Shown here one piece after another: positions 11,613-59,577 of a stretch of DNA of 64,000 nt. Within the stretch, counting starts at the first letter, position 1; each line of letters begins with the position of its first letter. Made by a program: the position numbers and the translations under genes. The notes beneath the pieces are model-generated. The model had not been told where the DNA came from and ran no database searches. It was given only the letters and a program-made list of their open reading frames with translations. Source of the stretch: Dehalococcoidia bacterium (GTDB taxonomy: Bacteria; Chloroflexota; Dehalococcoidia; Plut-88900); contig CBDFLQ010000007.1 in the NCBI GenBank assembly GCA_965249275.1, positions 224,001 through 288,000 on the forward strand, read 5' to 3'.

Positions 11613-11676
11613 GACTCCCCTCAACCCCCCGTCATCACGTGTCCCCGCTATGAATCTGAGGGACAGCGTCCTCTCC

Positions 11677-11820: not shown

Positions 11821-12490
11821 GTGACACGAACCCCTTGACTGTATGCGTACATGTGTACTATTATCCCCCTCGACTAGCTCGTCACACACCTAAACCCAAG
11901 GAGGAACCAAAAACCCAGGGGAAGCCCACCCGATCCACCCGAGGACTCAACGCCTCAGCCCATCCCAACGGCCCATACACGGGGCCCGCGGCTCAAGCGA
12001 AAGTCGCCATCTCCTCATCCCACGGGTCCCGTGCACCCTTCCCTGATCCCCAGGCGATGGAAGGTCCACAGACTATGCTCGGCAGGCCCCGTCCAACGAC
12101 GCACCTGCCGATTCAACGCTCCACATCATCGGATGCGTTTGTCCCGGCCCATTGCGCGCCGGTTTCCCGGGTAGGTCAACCGACCCCCGGTTTAGCAAGG
12201 CCCTCGTGCCTTGTTTGTCCCGCCGTCCCTGCCATCCGTCTACCCGGCGGATGCACCGGGACGCCGGTTATGAAAGTCCGCCTCAGGCGGCATCTTCCCC
12301 GTCAGCGGTCCGGTCAAGTGCCGCTGCCGGTGGGATCGGCCCCACACAACCCTGACCACAGCCGACAACGTGTGGGGATAATCCAGACCGGCGCCGACGG
12401 CTCGGCAGCAACCTCCGGCCTGGTTTCTAGTTACCGGGCCTTCCATCGCAGACCCTCCCAAACAAAACCGAAACCAACACCCCAAAACCC
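11821..12490 (+). ncRNA. Putative large structured ncRNA element, copy A
   Basis: Homologous to 23125-23766(-) and 26573-27240(+); long-range stem GCGATGGAAGGTCC (12054-12067) / GGGCCTTCCATCGC (12436-12449); many covarying hairpins; no conserved ORF. Confidence 0.7.
11835..11864 (+). promoter_or_regulatory. Sigma70-type promoter of element copy A, with SOS-box-like GTAC-N4-GTAC
   Basis: TTGACT (11835) - 18 bp - TATTAT (11859); same geometry in all three copies. Confidence 0.7.
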
Positions 12491-16585: not shown

Positions 16586-16635
16586 GATATGCCTGCCACT
16601 TGTGAAGTTCTGTTCCACTCGACTCTCTTTTACCT

Positions 16636-16663
16636 GTCATTCCGAGGCTCCGCGAGGAATCTA
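16636..16663. repeat. GTCATTCCG...GGAATC palindromic repeat
   Basis: GTCATTCCGAGGCTCCGCGAGGAATCTA, identical to 27286-27313. Confidence 0.8.
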
Positions 16664-16734
16664 AAGCATTATTTCGCAGCCCAGACTTAAATACCCTCAC
16701 AGCTTCGTCTACCAGCGCCGGCTTCCCCCTCCCC

Positions 16735-23072: not shown

Positions 23073-23124
23073 AACGTCCGGGGGCCGCTTAGACCTTCTC
23101 TGGGAGGAGGGTATTCAGTTGTGG

Positions 23125-23766
23125 AGGGAAACTCGGTTTTGCTTGTTTGGATTGTTGGGAGGGGGAAGGCGATGGAAGGTCCGGGACTCGAGGGCAGGGG
23201 CGGGAGGCCAGCCTGCGATTACCCCACCTGTCTCTGCTGTGGCGGACGAGAGAGGCGGGGTGTCTCGTCCACAAGAGGGCACTCGACCATTCGGAGGGAT
23301 GGGAGTGCGACTCAACTTCCGCCGCTGGGTGGGAATCTCCGAGGGAACGACGGTGGAGTCGGAGCCTGGGGCACGAAGGCCCCTGGCCAGCCCTACATTA
23401 GCGGGCTCGTATATTCGCGTGCTATGCGCATAGCGTTGACTCAAATGCTTCGGGTGAGGGAGCGTTGAATCGGCTGGCGTTGTAAGGGTGGATGCCCTTA
23501 GAGTCTATGGACCTACCATCGCCTGATGGTCAGGGAAGGGATAGCCGGGGCCTTTAGTATGAGGAGATGGCGACTTTCGCTTGAGCCGGAGGGCGTCGCG
23601 CGGCGCACCTGCGGGATGGGCTAGGACGTTGAGTCCTCTGCTATGTGGGCCGGGGCTGGGGTTCCCCCTGGGTATTGGCGCCTCCTTTGGGATTAGGGTG
23701 AGTGATTGGCCTATCGAGGGTGAATATAGCACAAGTGTTTTGCTTGAGTCAAGGGGTTCGCGTCAC
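23125..23766 (-). ncRNA. Putative large structured ncRNA element, copy B (inverted)
   Basis: Reverse complement begins GTGACGCGAACCCC-TTGACT-18bp-TATATT; long-range stem 23509-23524 / 23167-23182; shares blocks GAGGACTCAACG, AGCCCATCCC, GGCTCAAGCGAAAGTCGCCATCTCCTCAT. Confidence 0.7.
23723..23752 (-). promoter_or_regulatory. Sigma70-type promoter of element copy B
   Basis: TTGACT (23752-23747) - 18 bp - extended TGc-TATATT (23728-23723). Confidence 0.65.
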
Positions 23767-25223: not shown

Positions 25224-26408
25224 ACAAGTCTAAGGGCATAGGTAATAGGTAAGATAGGGAGAGTAAGGCCAAAGCTGAGGTGAGATTTGATGGAGCAGCC
25301 GACATTTGCAGACTTGGAATACGAGGGCAAGAAGCGAAAGACCCGCCGGGAGATATTTCTGGAGCGGATGGAGGACCTGGTTCCATGGGGAAAGTTAGAG
25401 GAGCGAATCCGGCCCTACTATTCCAGGGCGGGCCGTGGACGGAGGCCCTACGAGTTGTCGGTGATGCTGCGGATACACTGCGTGCAGCTGTTCTACAACC
25501 TGAGCGATCCGGGCATGGAGGACATGCTCTACGAGGTGGAGTCGGTGAGGCGGTTCGCAGGTCTGAGGCTGTCCGGCCCCTTGCCTGACGAGACTACGAT
25601 ACTGAACTTCCGCCATCTGCTGGAAGAGCAGGAGTTGGGTCGGGGGCTGTTCGAGGAGATCAACCGTCATCTGGAGTCTCGGGGACTGAGGCTCAGGGAG
25701 GGTACGATTGTGGATGCGAGCATCATCGAGGCGCCGGCGTCTACGAAGAACCGTGCTGGAGAGCGAGACCCCGATATGCACCAAGTGAAGAAGGGGAAGG
25801 AGTGGCACTTCGGTATGAAAGTGCACATTGGTGCAGACGCTGACACGGGGGTGGTGCACAGTATGAGTACGACAGCTGCGAACGTGCATGACGTGACGGA
25901 GGCGCACCGGCTGCTGCATGGAGGGGAGAGGCGAGTGTGGGGAGATGCGGGATATCAGGGAGTGGAGAAGCGGGCGGAGAATCGGGATATGGATGTGGAG
26001 TGGCGGGTGGCGATGAGACCTGGACGGCGTCGGAAACTGAGGGCGGGGAGCTGCGAGGCCTTAGCGGAGAAGAGCAAATCATCCATCAGGGCTAAGGTGG
26101 AGCATCCGTTCCTGTACGTGAAACGGCACTTCGGCTACGCCAAGGTCCGCTACAGGGGCTTGTACAAGAACACGCAACGGGTGGCGATGCTGCTGGGGCT
26201 GGCCAACTTGGTAAGGGCCGAGCGCCACTTAGCGGTGTGACGGAGGAGCAGTGTGGTCAAATCCGGGTCGATGGTGACTGGATGCCCTGACAGGCCAGAA
26301 CATAGGATGCAAATAAGCCACCGAGACGCAACATTACGACCCAACCTCTCCCCAAAACTCCATGCAAGACAACCTAAGCTGGTTTACAGTGAGTTGTTCA
26401 GAGCTTCC
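25213..26408 (+). mobile_element. IS5-family insertion sequence, 1196 bp, flanked by CTAG
   Basis: Imperfect 18-bp TIRs GAAACCTCTGAACAAGTC / GAGTTGTTCAGAGCTTCC; CTAG at 25209-25212 and 26409-26412. Confidence 0.92.
25287..26240 (+). CDS. IS5 family transposase
   Basis: PDETTILNFR, IVDASII, FGMKVHIG, GDAGYQG, RAKVEHPF, RYRGL. Confidence 0.95.
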   Translation: MMEQPTFADLEYEGKKRKTRREIFLERMEDLVPWGKLEERIRPYYSRAGRGRRPYELSVMLRIHCVQLFYNLSDPGMEDMLYEVESVRRFAGLRLSGPLPDETTILNFRHLLEEQELGRGLFEEINRHLESRGLRLREGTIVDASIIEAPASTKNRAGERDPDMHQVKKGKEWHFGMKVHIGADADTGVVHSMSTTAANVHDVTEAHRLLHGGERRVWGDAGYQGVEKRAENRDMDVEWRVAMRPGRRRKLRAGSCEALAEKSKSSIRAKVEHPFLYVKRHFGYAKVRYRGLYKNTQRVAMLLGLANLVRAERHLAV

Positions 26409-26464
26409 CTAGGACTTGTCCTCTCACGCCCTTCCTAGTCTTCCTTCCCCTCCCCCCTGGTAAC

Positions 26465-26505
26465 GACATATCAGCAATGTTGCAAGGCAACATTGCTGAT
26501 ATGTC
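26465..26505. repeat. Perfect 19-bp inverted repeat with a 3-nt loop
   Basis: GACATATCAGCAATGTTGC-AAG-GCAACATTGCTGATATGTC. Confidence 0.9.
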
Positions 26506-26572
26506 AATAAAACAGGGCGGGTGGGCGGGACTCAATATATCCCTGAGGGTGGTGGGGGGGCCTCTCCCAAAT

Positions 26573-27240
26573 GTGACACGAACCCCTTGACCTAATTGGA
26601 ACGTGTGTACTATTATTCCTCTCGACTAGCTCGTCACCCATTCCTAACGTAAAGGAGGAACCACAACACAGGGGGAATCCCAGCCCCGGCCCACACGAGG
26701 ACTCAACGTCCAAGCCCATCCCGCCGAGCGGCGTTAGCCGCTCCTAGGCTCAAGCGAAAGCCGCCATCTTCTCATACCATAGGCCCCGGCTTATCCTTCC
26801 CCCACCATCCACGCGATGGAAGGTCCGTAGACTATAAGCGGCAAGCCCTGTCCAAGGGCCCCTGCCGATACAACGCTCCCCTCATCAGGAGCGTATACCT
26901 CGCCCTCGCAGGCGAATACGCTGACCCCGCCAATGGCCGGGCTTAGATACAGGGCCTTTGAGCCCATAACCGACTCCCCCGCCGACGCCTTCGGAGAGGC
27001 ACGCGCACCCCTCGGCGGCTCCGAGTCCCGCTCCCATCCCTCTGCATGGTCGAGCACTTCTGGTGGTCGGGACGCCCCACACCGAGAATCCCTCGGGTCC
27101 CCTCCACATCCTCTCAGAAGCTAGGGGCTGTCCTGTGCAGGCAGTCGACGCCCACAGGCACCGGCACAGGCCTAACCGCCTCCCTGCCCAACACTCTCGG
27201 ACCTTCCATCGCCACCCTCCCCACACCAAACAAAAATCCA
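26573..27240 (+). ncRNA. Putative large structured ncRNA element, copy C
   Basis: Perfect 15-bp long-range stem 26813-26827 / 27198-27212; same conserved blocks and hairpin order as copies A and B. Confidence 0.7.
26587..26616 (+). promoter_or_regulatory. Sigma70-type promoter of element copy C, with SOS-box-like GAAC-N4-GTAC
   Basis: TTGACC - 18 bp - TATTAT; GAACGTGTGTAC at 26599-26610. Confidence 0.7.
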
Positions 27241-27285
27241 GAGTCCCAACTCCCAACTGAATAACCGACGGCCTCCCGCTCCCCT

Positions 27286-27313
27286 GTCATTCCGAGGCTC
27301 CGCGAGGAATCTA
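27286..27313. repeat. GTCATTCCG...GGAATC palindromic repeat
   Basis: Identical to 16636-16663. Confidence 0.8.
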
Positions 27314-27355
27314 GGACTTGCCCACCCACATCCTTCATAGCCTTCCCCCAACCCC

Positions 27356-28423
27356 CTATCCCGGGAAATGCGGCATCACCTCCCTCGCAAACAACCGCAT
27401 CGAGCTCCGAGTCTTCCGCGCGTCCATCCCCCCGATCTGCATCCACGCCAGTATGTGCGTTGCCCCGCGGGCCTGGTCCTCCTCCACCGCACGGCACACG
27501 TCATCGGGCGTCCCGACCATGAACGGTTTGCCCAGGAAATGCACCTTCCCTAACTCTGCAAGATCGGGTAATTCCTCCGCACTCGGCAAAGGCAGCATCC
27601 CGAACATCTCCCCCGCCATAGAATCGAATATGCCCGCCTCCGTGTACTTGGGCAGATAGCCGCGCATCTGCGCCAGGGCATGTGGGGCGTAGTCCCTCCA
27701 CGCCTGCTCCTTCGTCTCCCCGACATAGCAGTTCCGTATAACGTTCCTGAAATACTGTCCCGGGTCCCGACCGTACTTTCTCAGCGCCCGTTCGTACGGC
27801 CCGAGCATGTTCGCATCCCGGGGCCCGGTCAGGTGACAGCCGTACCTCGCCGCCCGATCTATTGCCGGCGGTATCTCATCCCCCACCGGCCTCTTCTCCG
27901 CCGCAACCCATATGGGTGGGTGTGGTTTCTGTACGGGACGGGGCAGCATCGTCACCCCATCGAAGTGAAAGTGGCGGCCCTTGAAAGTGAAGTTCTCTTC
28001 CGTGAACAACCCAATGATCGACTGCAGTCCCTCCTCCATCCTCCGTCCCCGCTCACTCCTCGGCACGTCCAGCGTATCGAATTCCGTCTTCTCGTACCCG
28101 ATCCCCAGGCCCAGGTCGAACCGACCATTGGACAACACGTCCACCATCGCCGCGTTCTCCGCAATTATCAGCGGATGATGCAGGGGCAAGATGCTGATAT
28201 TCGTCCCGATCCTTATCCGACTCGTCCTTGCGGCCATCGCTGCGCAGAGGATAAAGGGGTTGGGTGGGTACTGGGCGTCGAAGTGGTGCTCGGCAGTCCA
28301 CACTTGGTCGAAACCCAGGTCCTCTGCCAGCTCGGTGAGCTCCAGTACCTGCTGATAGTTCTCAGTGTCGGGAGTGCGAAACTCGGCCGGGTTCTCTGCG
28401 AAAAAGAACAGTCCAAACTTCAT
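27356..28423 (-). CDS. LLM class flavin-dependent oxidoreductase
   Basis: MKFGLF, GFDQVWTAEHHF, SNGRFDLGLG, PRPVQKPHPPIW. Confidence 0.92.
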   Translation of the reverse strand: MKFGLFFFAENPAEFRTPDTENYQQVLELTELAEDLGFDQVWTAEHHFDAQYPPNPFILCAAMAARTSRIRIGTNISILPLHHPLIIAENAAMVDVLSNGRFDLGLGIGYEKTEFDTLDVPRSERGRRMEEGLQSIIGLFTEENFTFKGRHFHFDGVTMLPRPVQKPHPPIWVAAEKRPVGDEIPPAIDRAARYGCHLTGPRDANMLGPYERALRKYGRDPGQYFRNVIRNCYVGETKEQAWRDYAPHALAQMRGYLPKYTEAGIFDSMAGEMFGMLPLPSAEELPDLAELGKVHFLGKPFMVGTPDDVCRAVEEDQARGATHILAWMQIGGMDARKTRSSMRLFAREVMPHFPG

Positions 28424-36878: not shown

Positions 36879-37003
36879 TTCAACCCCTCCTCCCGGGCCC
36901 CCGACACGGGGCCCGTTCTTGAGAATTGAGGCCAGTATAGGGTCTTTACCGCCGCACGAAAAGCAGAAAAGCCTCCCCCTCTCCACCAAACCGCCACAGC
37001 CGT

Positions 37004-37031
37004 GTCATTCCGATGCCCCGCGAGGAATCTA
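37004..37031. repeat. GTCATTCCG...GGAATC palindromic repeat
   Basis: GTCATTCCGATGCCCCGCGAGGAATCTA, 2 mismatches to the 16636/27286 copies. Confidence 0.75.
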
Positions 37032-37277
37032 ACGCGTTGATACCCCACTCTACCTACGCATATCAAAGGCTACGCGACCTTGCGAAGAGACTCGCCCATC
37101 TCCCATATTCGTCATTACTGCGGCATCAAGCTCACGAAGAACAGTCTATCCATTTTCTCAGCAGTCAACTAATATCAATTGTGTCCAGCGCCAACCGTTG
37201 TCAAAACTGAACCCCGCATATCAGGTGCTACACTGTCCCCCGCGTCCCCCCGCCCCACTCCCCAGGAGGTCAAAACT

Positions 37278-55336: not shown

Positions 55337-55510
55337 AAACACAAACCACTCCCCGTTCAGGTGCCCATCCAGGGAGAATAGGGAAGGCGGTGAAAAACCG
55401 CCGCGGTAGCGCCACTGTAAGCGGGATTTGGAGTCGGAGTCCACTGTCGGTTAACCGATGGGAAGGGCCCGGCACCCGAGATCCACCCGCAAGCCAGGAG
55501 ACCTGCCCGA
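55337..55510 (+). promoter_or_regulatory. Cobalamin (AdoCbl) riboswitch
   Basis: AGGTGC...AATAGGGAA.GCGGTGAAAAACCGC..GCCACTGT...CCACTG..GGGAAGG...AAGCCAGGAGACCTGCC (B12 box), upstream of a btu-type ABC operon. Confidence 0.93.
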
Positions 55511-55619
55511 ACAGGAGGTGACCACTCTCCGCATAAGAGAGGGTCCCTAGCGCGTTGGGCAAGAGTCCCGGGCAGAGCGCAACAAGACCTCCAGCGGAGA
55601 ACCGCAGGAGGTCGTTTTT

Positions 55620-59502: not shown

Positions 59503-59577
59503 TGGTGGGCCCGCCTGGATTCGAACCAGGGACCAATCGGTTATGAGCCGACCGCTCTGCCGCTGAGCTACGAGCCC
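59503..59577 (-). tRNA. tRNA with CAT anticodon, probably tRNA-Ile2 (lysidine-modified)
   Basis: GGGCTCG acceptor stem, anticodon arm GTCGG-CTCATAA-CCGAT, GGTTCGAATCC T-loop, encoded ACCA; lacks initiator features. Confidence 0.9.

Follow-up and report, generated by a model that had tools for sequence, protein, structure and literature searches.

The window, the whole stretch of 64,000 nucleotides analysed here (G000:C7:224001-288000, G000 being the genome of the window), belongs to a 2.9-Mb genome of seven contigs with 59% G+C and contains three copies, A, B and C, of an element of ∼650 nt that has no conserved reading frame. The body of copy C, a non-coding element, lies on the forward strand at 26621-27280 (ends approximate), as judged by alignment of the three copies, blastn and an nhmmer match to the conserved core that spans window 26645-26839 (genome C7:250645-250839). 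The body of copy A was placed by the same means at 11869-12460 of the forward strand (3′ end approximate), and that of copy B, by alignment and nhmmer, at 23100-23715 of the reverse strand (ends approximate). Rfam, searched at gathering thresholds, placed no family on the elements; its only matches elsewhere in the window were a cobalamin riboswitch at 55342-55524 (forward strand, 106.5 bits) and a tRNA gene at 59506-59577 (reverse strand).

A perfect Shine-Dalgarno-like AAGGAGG occurs at 11898-11904, at 26652-26658 and, on the reverse strand, at 23685-23679, and it is conserved ∼30-45 nt into every element subtype in all species; the window copies have no start codon at the usual distance after it. 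A hairpin-forming repeat of ∼36 nt (TGTCATTCCGAGGCTCCGCGAGGAATCT...) is found at 16635-16670, 27285-27320 and 37003-37038, with a weaker copy at 11630-11665. It lies at gene or element ends, another copy is present upstream of lexA (G000 C6:∼159440), and it looks REP-like or terminator-like. Nine sequencing-run records labelled RNA contain small shares of copy C, and in assembled contigs of four metatranscriptome runs from three studies, pieces 90-99% alike cover parts of 26671-27460. No piece covered 26300-26668 in these four runs, whose assembled contigs show neither a transcription start nor expression.

Each copy is preceded by a promoter that, like all element promoters considered here, was predicted from the consensus only. 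At copy C, an upstream block, GTGACACGAACCCCTTGAC (26573-26591, forward strand), ends in the −35 element TTGAC (26587-26591). The dyad GAAC-GTGT-GTAC follows at 26599-26610, with one mismatch to the Gram-positive LexA operator GAAC-N4-GTTC (the Cheo box), and directly adjoins the −10 hexamer TATTAT at 26611-26616. At copy A, the upstream block and −35 element occupy 11821-11839 of the forward strand, the dyad GTAC-ATGT-GTAC 11847-11858, and TATTAT 11859-11864. At copy B, on the reverse strand, TTGAC (23752-23748) precedes the dyad AAAC-ACTT-GTGC (23740-23729) and TATATT (23728-23723). The layout is TTGACn, 6 nt, the 12-mer and then the −10 hexamer, which gives an 18-nt spacer. The block GTGACACGAACCCCTTGAC is common to the three window copies (0, 1 and 0 mismatches) and, with ≤4 mismatches, is also found upstream of the genome's other copies. 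The first-pass annotation had described an imperfect SOS-box-like motif directly before the −10 box of each copy, in an otherwise unconserved spacer. This description held: the three 12-mers are where it had placed them, none is a perfect GAAC-N4-GTTC, and the 7 nt separating TTGAC from the box differ among A, B and C and average 0.4 bits genome-wide.

Conservation of the dyad across the genome

Element membership was defined solely by nhmmer, with a profile built on the conserved 5′ core of the RNA. This profile identified 54 element copies in the genome, 53 of them with an intact 5′ end. The promoter was present in all 53, and in all 53 the best match to the LexA matrix described below was at the same offset, with a 16-mer that starts 4-5 nt after TTGAC and abuts the −10. 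When the 678 promoter-like strings of the genome (TTGA[CTA]-N16-20-TAnnnT) were considered, 67 carried nnAC-N4-GTnC against the −10, a number that by our own estimate would be ∼1-2 from base composition, and all 67 had the same upstream block. Of these, 53 belong to the core-type elements, 13 to elements whose 5′ end differs (fam4) and one to a protein gene (C7:348984). The upstream block also precedes close variants of the box at five more promoters, among them those of two terS-like cassettes (GTAC or GCAC-ACAT-ATTC) and of one unannotated unit (GAAC-ATAT-GTTG). A same-module promoter at G000 C5:231932-232700 has the best Cheo-like box of its kind, GAAC-ATAT-GTTG (score 15.2 under the LexA matrix); an ATG lies 7 nt after the −10 and opens a 230-aa frame for which we found no Pfam or PHROGs match.

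In every copy the 12-mer sits between the predicted −35 and −10 elements and abuts the latter. Five of its positions (A3, C4, G9, T10 and C12) are invariant in all 67 sites, and position 1 is G or A. Among the 53 copies (29 distinct 12-mers), information content from position 1 to position 12 is 1.03, 0.36, 1.99 and 1.99 bits in the left half-site, 0.79, 0.85, 0.04 and 1.12 bits in the four centre bases that separate the half-sites, and 1.99, 1.99, 0.48 and 1.99 bits in the right half-site. The most frequent half-site pairs were GAAC/GTGC (14 sites), AAAC/GTAC (13), GTAC/GTAC (13), AGAC/GTTC (10), GTAC/GTTC (7) and GAAC/GTAC (6), with AAAC/GTGC (2), ATAC/GTTC (1) and GCAC/GTAC (1) being rarer. 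As in the window, no site was a perfect GAAC-N4-GTTC (0 of 67): 27 had one core mismatch and 40 had two. Since all copies share descent, the sites counted here cannot be treated as independent of one another.

The combination of an unchanging AC-N4-GT dyad, a centre that varies largely freely and a drifting spacer around it is the pattern of a protein-dimer site. We weighed the alternative that there is no operator, and that the conserved bases are either the promoter itself (a −16 or extended −10 element) or were inherited with a recently amplified promoter. The shared ancestry of all copies favors this explanation, as does the overlap of the right half with the −16 region. The −16/extended −10 motif is TRTGnTATAAT; T-G-T-G precedes the −10 in the 16 of 67 sites in which position 11 is G, and the TGTGC ahead of TATATT in copy B also fits the motif. 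However, position 11 is not G in the other 51 sites, which therefore lack an extended −10, yet G9, T10 and C12 are fixed in them as well. Furthermore, the left-half AC is invariant although it lies ∼20 nt upstream of the −10, where we know of no polymerase contact, whereas the centre four bases and the 7 upstream spacer bases diverged freely in the same copies. The invariance pattern thus goes beyond what shared ancestry alone would leave, and known polymerase contacts cover only part of the right half. We consider an explanation without an operator distinctly unlikely, and conclude that the dyad is real, is kept by selection in this lineage and is placed to repress.

Comparison with LexA operators

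The genome encodes a single protein with a LexA_DNA_bind domain, an equivalog match to TIGR00498, and the same gene, at G000 C6:159597-160226, encodes its only S24 peptidase. Upstream of this lexA gene are TTGACA, 17 nt and TATTAT, followed by AGAACGCCCGTTCC. LexA of the GAAC-N4-GTTC type has reportedly been described for Dehalococcoides, as the first-pass annotation had noted. The host operator is of this type: such a site lies upstream of lexA here and is perfect in 21 of 26 relatives' sites. These 26 sites came from a survey in which lexA was matched in 55 of 61 genomes (30 loci among the matches listed). The best GAAC-N4-GTTC-like site upstream of each lexA was taken, and the 26 that were usable were combined into a symmetrised 16-nt matrix, which is partly circular since the sites were picked by their likeness to GAAC-N4-GTTC. 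Position 2 is A in 24 of the 26 operators and position 11 is T in 25. The non-perfect sites include GTAC-N4-GTTC in two sister species (G006 and G008), a right half of ATTC at locus L006 and a right half of TTTC at L031. At the lexA genes of two other Dehalococcoidia (L004 and L005, the latter left out of the matrix), 6 nt separate TTGACA from GAAC-TGAT-GTGC, which in turn adjoins the −10.

Under this matrix the window copies scored 10.32 (A), 6.76 (B) and 15.59 (C), compared with 17.8 for the host lexA operator; the per-position frequencies of such scores in the genome are 5e-5, 2.6e-4 and 3e-6, respectively. Copy C ranks approximately tenth among 2.9 million genome positions and copy B is the weakest of the 67, so that all 67 sites score ≥6.76 (median 10.06, maximum 16.67), a level reached by 756 of the 2.9 million positions. 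The other 611 promoter-like strings had a median of −6.5. Twelve of them reached 6.76 and eight reached 9, one of the eight being the distal recA promoter and five having the same upstream block. Module sites made up 9 of the 15 genome positions scoring ≥15, 19 of the 64 scoring ≥12 and 53 of the 322 scoring ≥9. A decoy matrix with swapped half-sites, run on 34 of the 67 sites, gave scores of ≤2.0. Thus, the possibility that the three window sites might score at background under a matrix of lexA operators, which the first-pass annotation had named as a refutation, was not what we found; with the 26 relatives' operators as the reference they are well above it. High-scoring matches within genes (for example, C6:152602 and C6:157111) were set aside as chance matches in coding sequence without promoter context.

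The element dyad shares with the Cheo box its symmetry, a free 4-nt centre, identical bases at A3, C4, G9, T10 and C12, a preference for A or G at position 5 and overlap with the promoter, and its placement is identical to that in the two Dehalococcoidia lexA promoters with GAAC-TGAT-GTGC. It differs in having 1-2 core mismatches in each element copy and no constraint at positions 2 and 11, and in that ∼67 sites serve one RNA family whereas three non-element operons have convincing sites. The LexA motif of Fibrobacter, with a GCAC-N4-GTGC core, is said to differ at the same positions 2 and 11. These positions are also where the cyanobacterial LexA motif departs from the Gram-positive one, according to the part of the literature consulted (PMC3091678). 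The cyanobacterial box is quoted there as RGTACNNNDGTWCB/AGTACWNWTGTACT (Mazon et al. 2004), and GTAC half-sites are common to it and the element sites: relative to the motif as quoted, 7 of the 67 sites have no mismatch, 34 have one and 26 have two. The perfect matches include copy A, whose 14-mer (the dyad plus one base on each side) has 0 mismatches to RGTACNNNDGTWCB on the opposite strand, and five AGTACTTATGTTCT sites. The host LexA is not cyanobacterial, its own operator being GAAC-N4-GTTC, so this match does not show binding; for a LexA of the host type, acceptance of GTAC is indicated only by the lexA genes of G006 and G008, which are preceded by GTAC-N4-GTTC.

The best single reading, to which we give about an even chance, is that the dyad is a LexA site. 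It draws on observed features of the dyad, namely the agreement of its invariant positions with the LexA core, its scores and the geometry shared with a lexA promoter, as well as on half-site variants that link the sets of sites (see below). As we infer it from the sequence, the 12-mer would be an operator, (G/A)nAC-N4-GTnC, for a dimeric repressor, and the most likely binder would be the genome's single LexA. The operator would fill the 3′ two thirds of the 18-nt spacer and touch the −10, leaving RNA polymerase no access once protein is bound. The ∼67 element promoters, together with the terS-like/terL cassettes that have the same promoter, would then carry SOS operators of weak to medium strength. 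Without damage, LexA would keep these promoters shut; they would be released once RecA-stimulated self-cleavage lowered the LexA level, and DNA damage would induce the RNA.

One point against LexA is that lexA operators hardly vary at positions 2 and 11, where the elements are free. Such freedom fits either a LexA that is indifferent to these positions or a protein that reads only AC-N4-GT. The dyad could accordingly be the operator of a different dimeric protein that reads AC-N4-GT plus C12, such as a regulator of terS/terL and the RNA elements, with a likeness to LexA sites that is partial and coincidental. The lack of any perfect LexA box among the 67 sites is consistent with this idea, and a matrix derived from the elements gave the lexA operator a low score (9.7) and found many non-SOS sites. 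However, all five invariant positions fall on those of the LexA core, with register and spacing in agreement, a coincidence that we estimate at ∼1 in 1000 for an unrelated site. On the balance of these points and those from the sister species below, we regard a different regulator as rather unlikely.

The dyad in sister species and at terS-like/terL cassettes

The genus is represented by nine genomes (G000-G008). The element core was detected by blastn in all nine and in none of the 52 other Dehalococcoidia searched; copy numbers per genome are to be read as at least the values obtained, with 13 candidates scored per genome. Among element promoters, the box was present in the G000 register in all 14 fetched from G001, G002, G003 and G005 and in 11 of 13 from G007. 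In contrast, none was found at the RNA-element promoters of G004 (0 of 13), G006 (0 of 11) or G008 (0 of 12). The expectation in the first-pass annotation that the motif should recur in additional copies was therefore correct for this genome (67 of 67) and for five sister species (25 of 27 promoters), and failed in the remaining three (0 of 36). Its suggestion that the RNA may be LexA-repressed and inducible by DNA damage is partly supported: the five invariant positions agree with the LexA core and scores are high, but there is no perfect copy, positions 2 and 11 are free and three species lack the box.

The element promoters without a box in G004, G006 and G008 still have good −35 and −10 elements, as would be expected if there were no operator. 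Since these promoters are good without it, the element can do without the box, which is specific to one lineage. Most of their spacers are unrelated and score ≤3.6. In some copies, TTAC-N4-GTGC is shifted by one base towards the −35 (scores 4-6). Ten of the 36 promoters have a GAAC-N4-ATTC scoring ≥9 immediately past the −10, which may reflect site turnover or be part of the RNA. In G004, an inverted repeat, TTTGCT-N11-AGCAAA, brackets the −35 of element promoters (L062, L063 and L065-L071) and may be another operator.

The same promoter and box also precede protein-coding cassettes, in which a small terS-like gene comes before a gene for the large terminase subunit (PHROGs E = 2.6e-6). Orphan cassettes of this kind are found outside the window at G000 C7:110680-112614, C5:3-2109 and C6:411198, and each of the nine genus genomes has 1-4 copies of full-length terL. 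By blastn, cassettes and elements share identity only over the first 17-51 nt, ending after ∼46 nt, and the RNA-core profile had no match in six protein-gene loci. Transcription units with nothing else in common have thus all kept the box, which argues further against a promoter without an operator. In 16 of 17 cassette loci from the nine genomes, the best-scoring site within 900 nt upstream of terL was xxAC-N4-[GA]TxC abutting a −10-like hexamer; the exception was locus L147, which had no such box upstream of terL.

Cassette boxes of G000, G001, G002, G003 and G005 are GTAC or GCAC-N4-ATTC and score 12.3-14.0, and those of G007 score 13.7-17.8. Those of G004, G006 and G008 (GCAC-N4-ATTC, AAAC or GTAC-N4-GTCC, and GCAC-N4-GTGC) keep the dyad yet score 3.4-8.3 under the LexA matrix, which would suit a regulator other than LexA. 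Because the dyad is conserved at the cassette promoter in all nine genomes, it is old there and was apparently passed on to the RNA elements. The C7:110680 cassette lies among housekeeping genes with no prophage, with PEPCK and UbiA upstream and YidC and Jag further downstream. There is no candidate regulator gene beside it, which counts against a dedicated regulator of the terS/terL and RNA units. A phage repressor was also considered as the binder and rejected, since no regulator or phage gene is beside this cassette and the genome has no second S24 peptidase.

The bodies of nine fam4 elements (C7:453540-454052, C6:128987-129415, C5:734776-735120 and six more) match terL residues ∼194-374 at 47-74% identity in frames without stops. 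Some of the RNA elements may therefore be terL fragments or even still be coding. The middle part of copy C (compare window 26823-27232) has ∼69% DNA identity to one fam4 element.

SOS-type genes and a possible element-dominated regulon

Outside the module, convincing LexA-type promoters were found at three genes only: lexA, a radical-SAM/HhH gene and recA. The radical-SAM/HhH gene is preceded by the best LexA-matrix position in the genome (20.15) and matches TIGR03916, putative DNA modification/repair radical SAM protein, with 276.5 bits, under the curated cut-off of 343.5. Its promoter has boxes in all nine genus genomes, often two in tandem, with scores from 20 down to 7 and half-sites that include GAAT, ATTC, GTGC and GACC. 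Unlike the element boxes, these boxes vary at C4 (to T) and at G9 (to A). Degeneracy at different positions in the two sets argues against one protein with fixed contacts and hence for a different regulator at the elements. On the other side, half-site variants link the sets: GTAC occurs in the G006 and G008 lexA operators and in the elements, and ATTC in the radical-SAM and cassette promoters. The element boxes fall within the lower and middle score range of the predicted sites at SOS-type genes in the genus.

The distal recA promoter contains GAAC-ACAT-ATCC (10.9) in G000, G002 and G005, GAAC-ACAC-ATAC (13.1) in G003 and GAAC-ACAT-ATAC (11.5) in G001. At recA of G006, G007 and G008 the search gave no site above −0.6, and a LexA-like distal promoter is thus limited to the G000 clade (the G004 locus was not counted). 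A proximal recA promoter (G000 C5:375322; L102-L109) has a TATTAT or TATCAT −10 that ends 7 nt before the ATG and would give a leaderless mRNA; eight of the nine genus genomes share it, again with the G004 locus not counted.

If LexA does bind the dyad, a repeated element supplies most of the genome's LexA-type operators, and an orphan RNA family gains a testable expression condition, DNA damage, the main gap for its function. The shared promoter links this RNA family to the terS/terL cassettes. We tentatively entertain a further possibility, which we hold to be less probable than LexA binding itself: the LexA regulon of the genus may have been taken over by a selfish, terminase-derived and mostly non-coding family, together with the ancestral terS/terL cassettes, at ∼20:1 over the convincing SOS operators of the host. 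In that event, DNA damage would set off production of a large structured RNA and the terminase pair in a burst across the genome, and before any damage LexA titration by the numerous weak sites would move the threshold of the SOS response. To our knowledge, no large structured RNA family has been found wired to the SOS response, so this would be the first if LexA binds. If LexA does not bind, the dyad marks another regulator of ∼70 promoters, and the box could be used as bait.

By analogy, the closest precedents in the portions of the literature consulted appear to be phage GIL01 (PMC4551915) and the 13E12 repeats of Mycobacterium tuberculosis (PMC3381160). At promoter P1 of GIL01, host LexA is described as acting at a good box and at a degenerate box helped by gp7 (PMC4551915). 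In GIL01 the boxes follow the transcription start and depend on a co-factor from the phage, of which no counterpart is known here; in both cases, if LexA binds the element dyad, a mobile or phage-related unit would borrow host LexA at low-information sites. The 13E12 family is described as being under direct LexA control and bound in ChIP-seq (PMC3381160). It is protein-coding with ∼ten members, whereas the family described here has ∼67 copies of mostly non-coding RNAs with putative LexA sites. Both are multicopy repeat families with SOS or SOS-like boxes of the GAAC-N4-GTTC type in their promoters, and several 13E12 boxes are reported to have 2-3 mismatches (PMC3381160).
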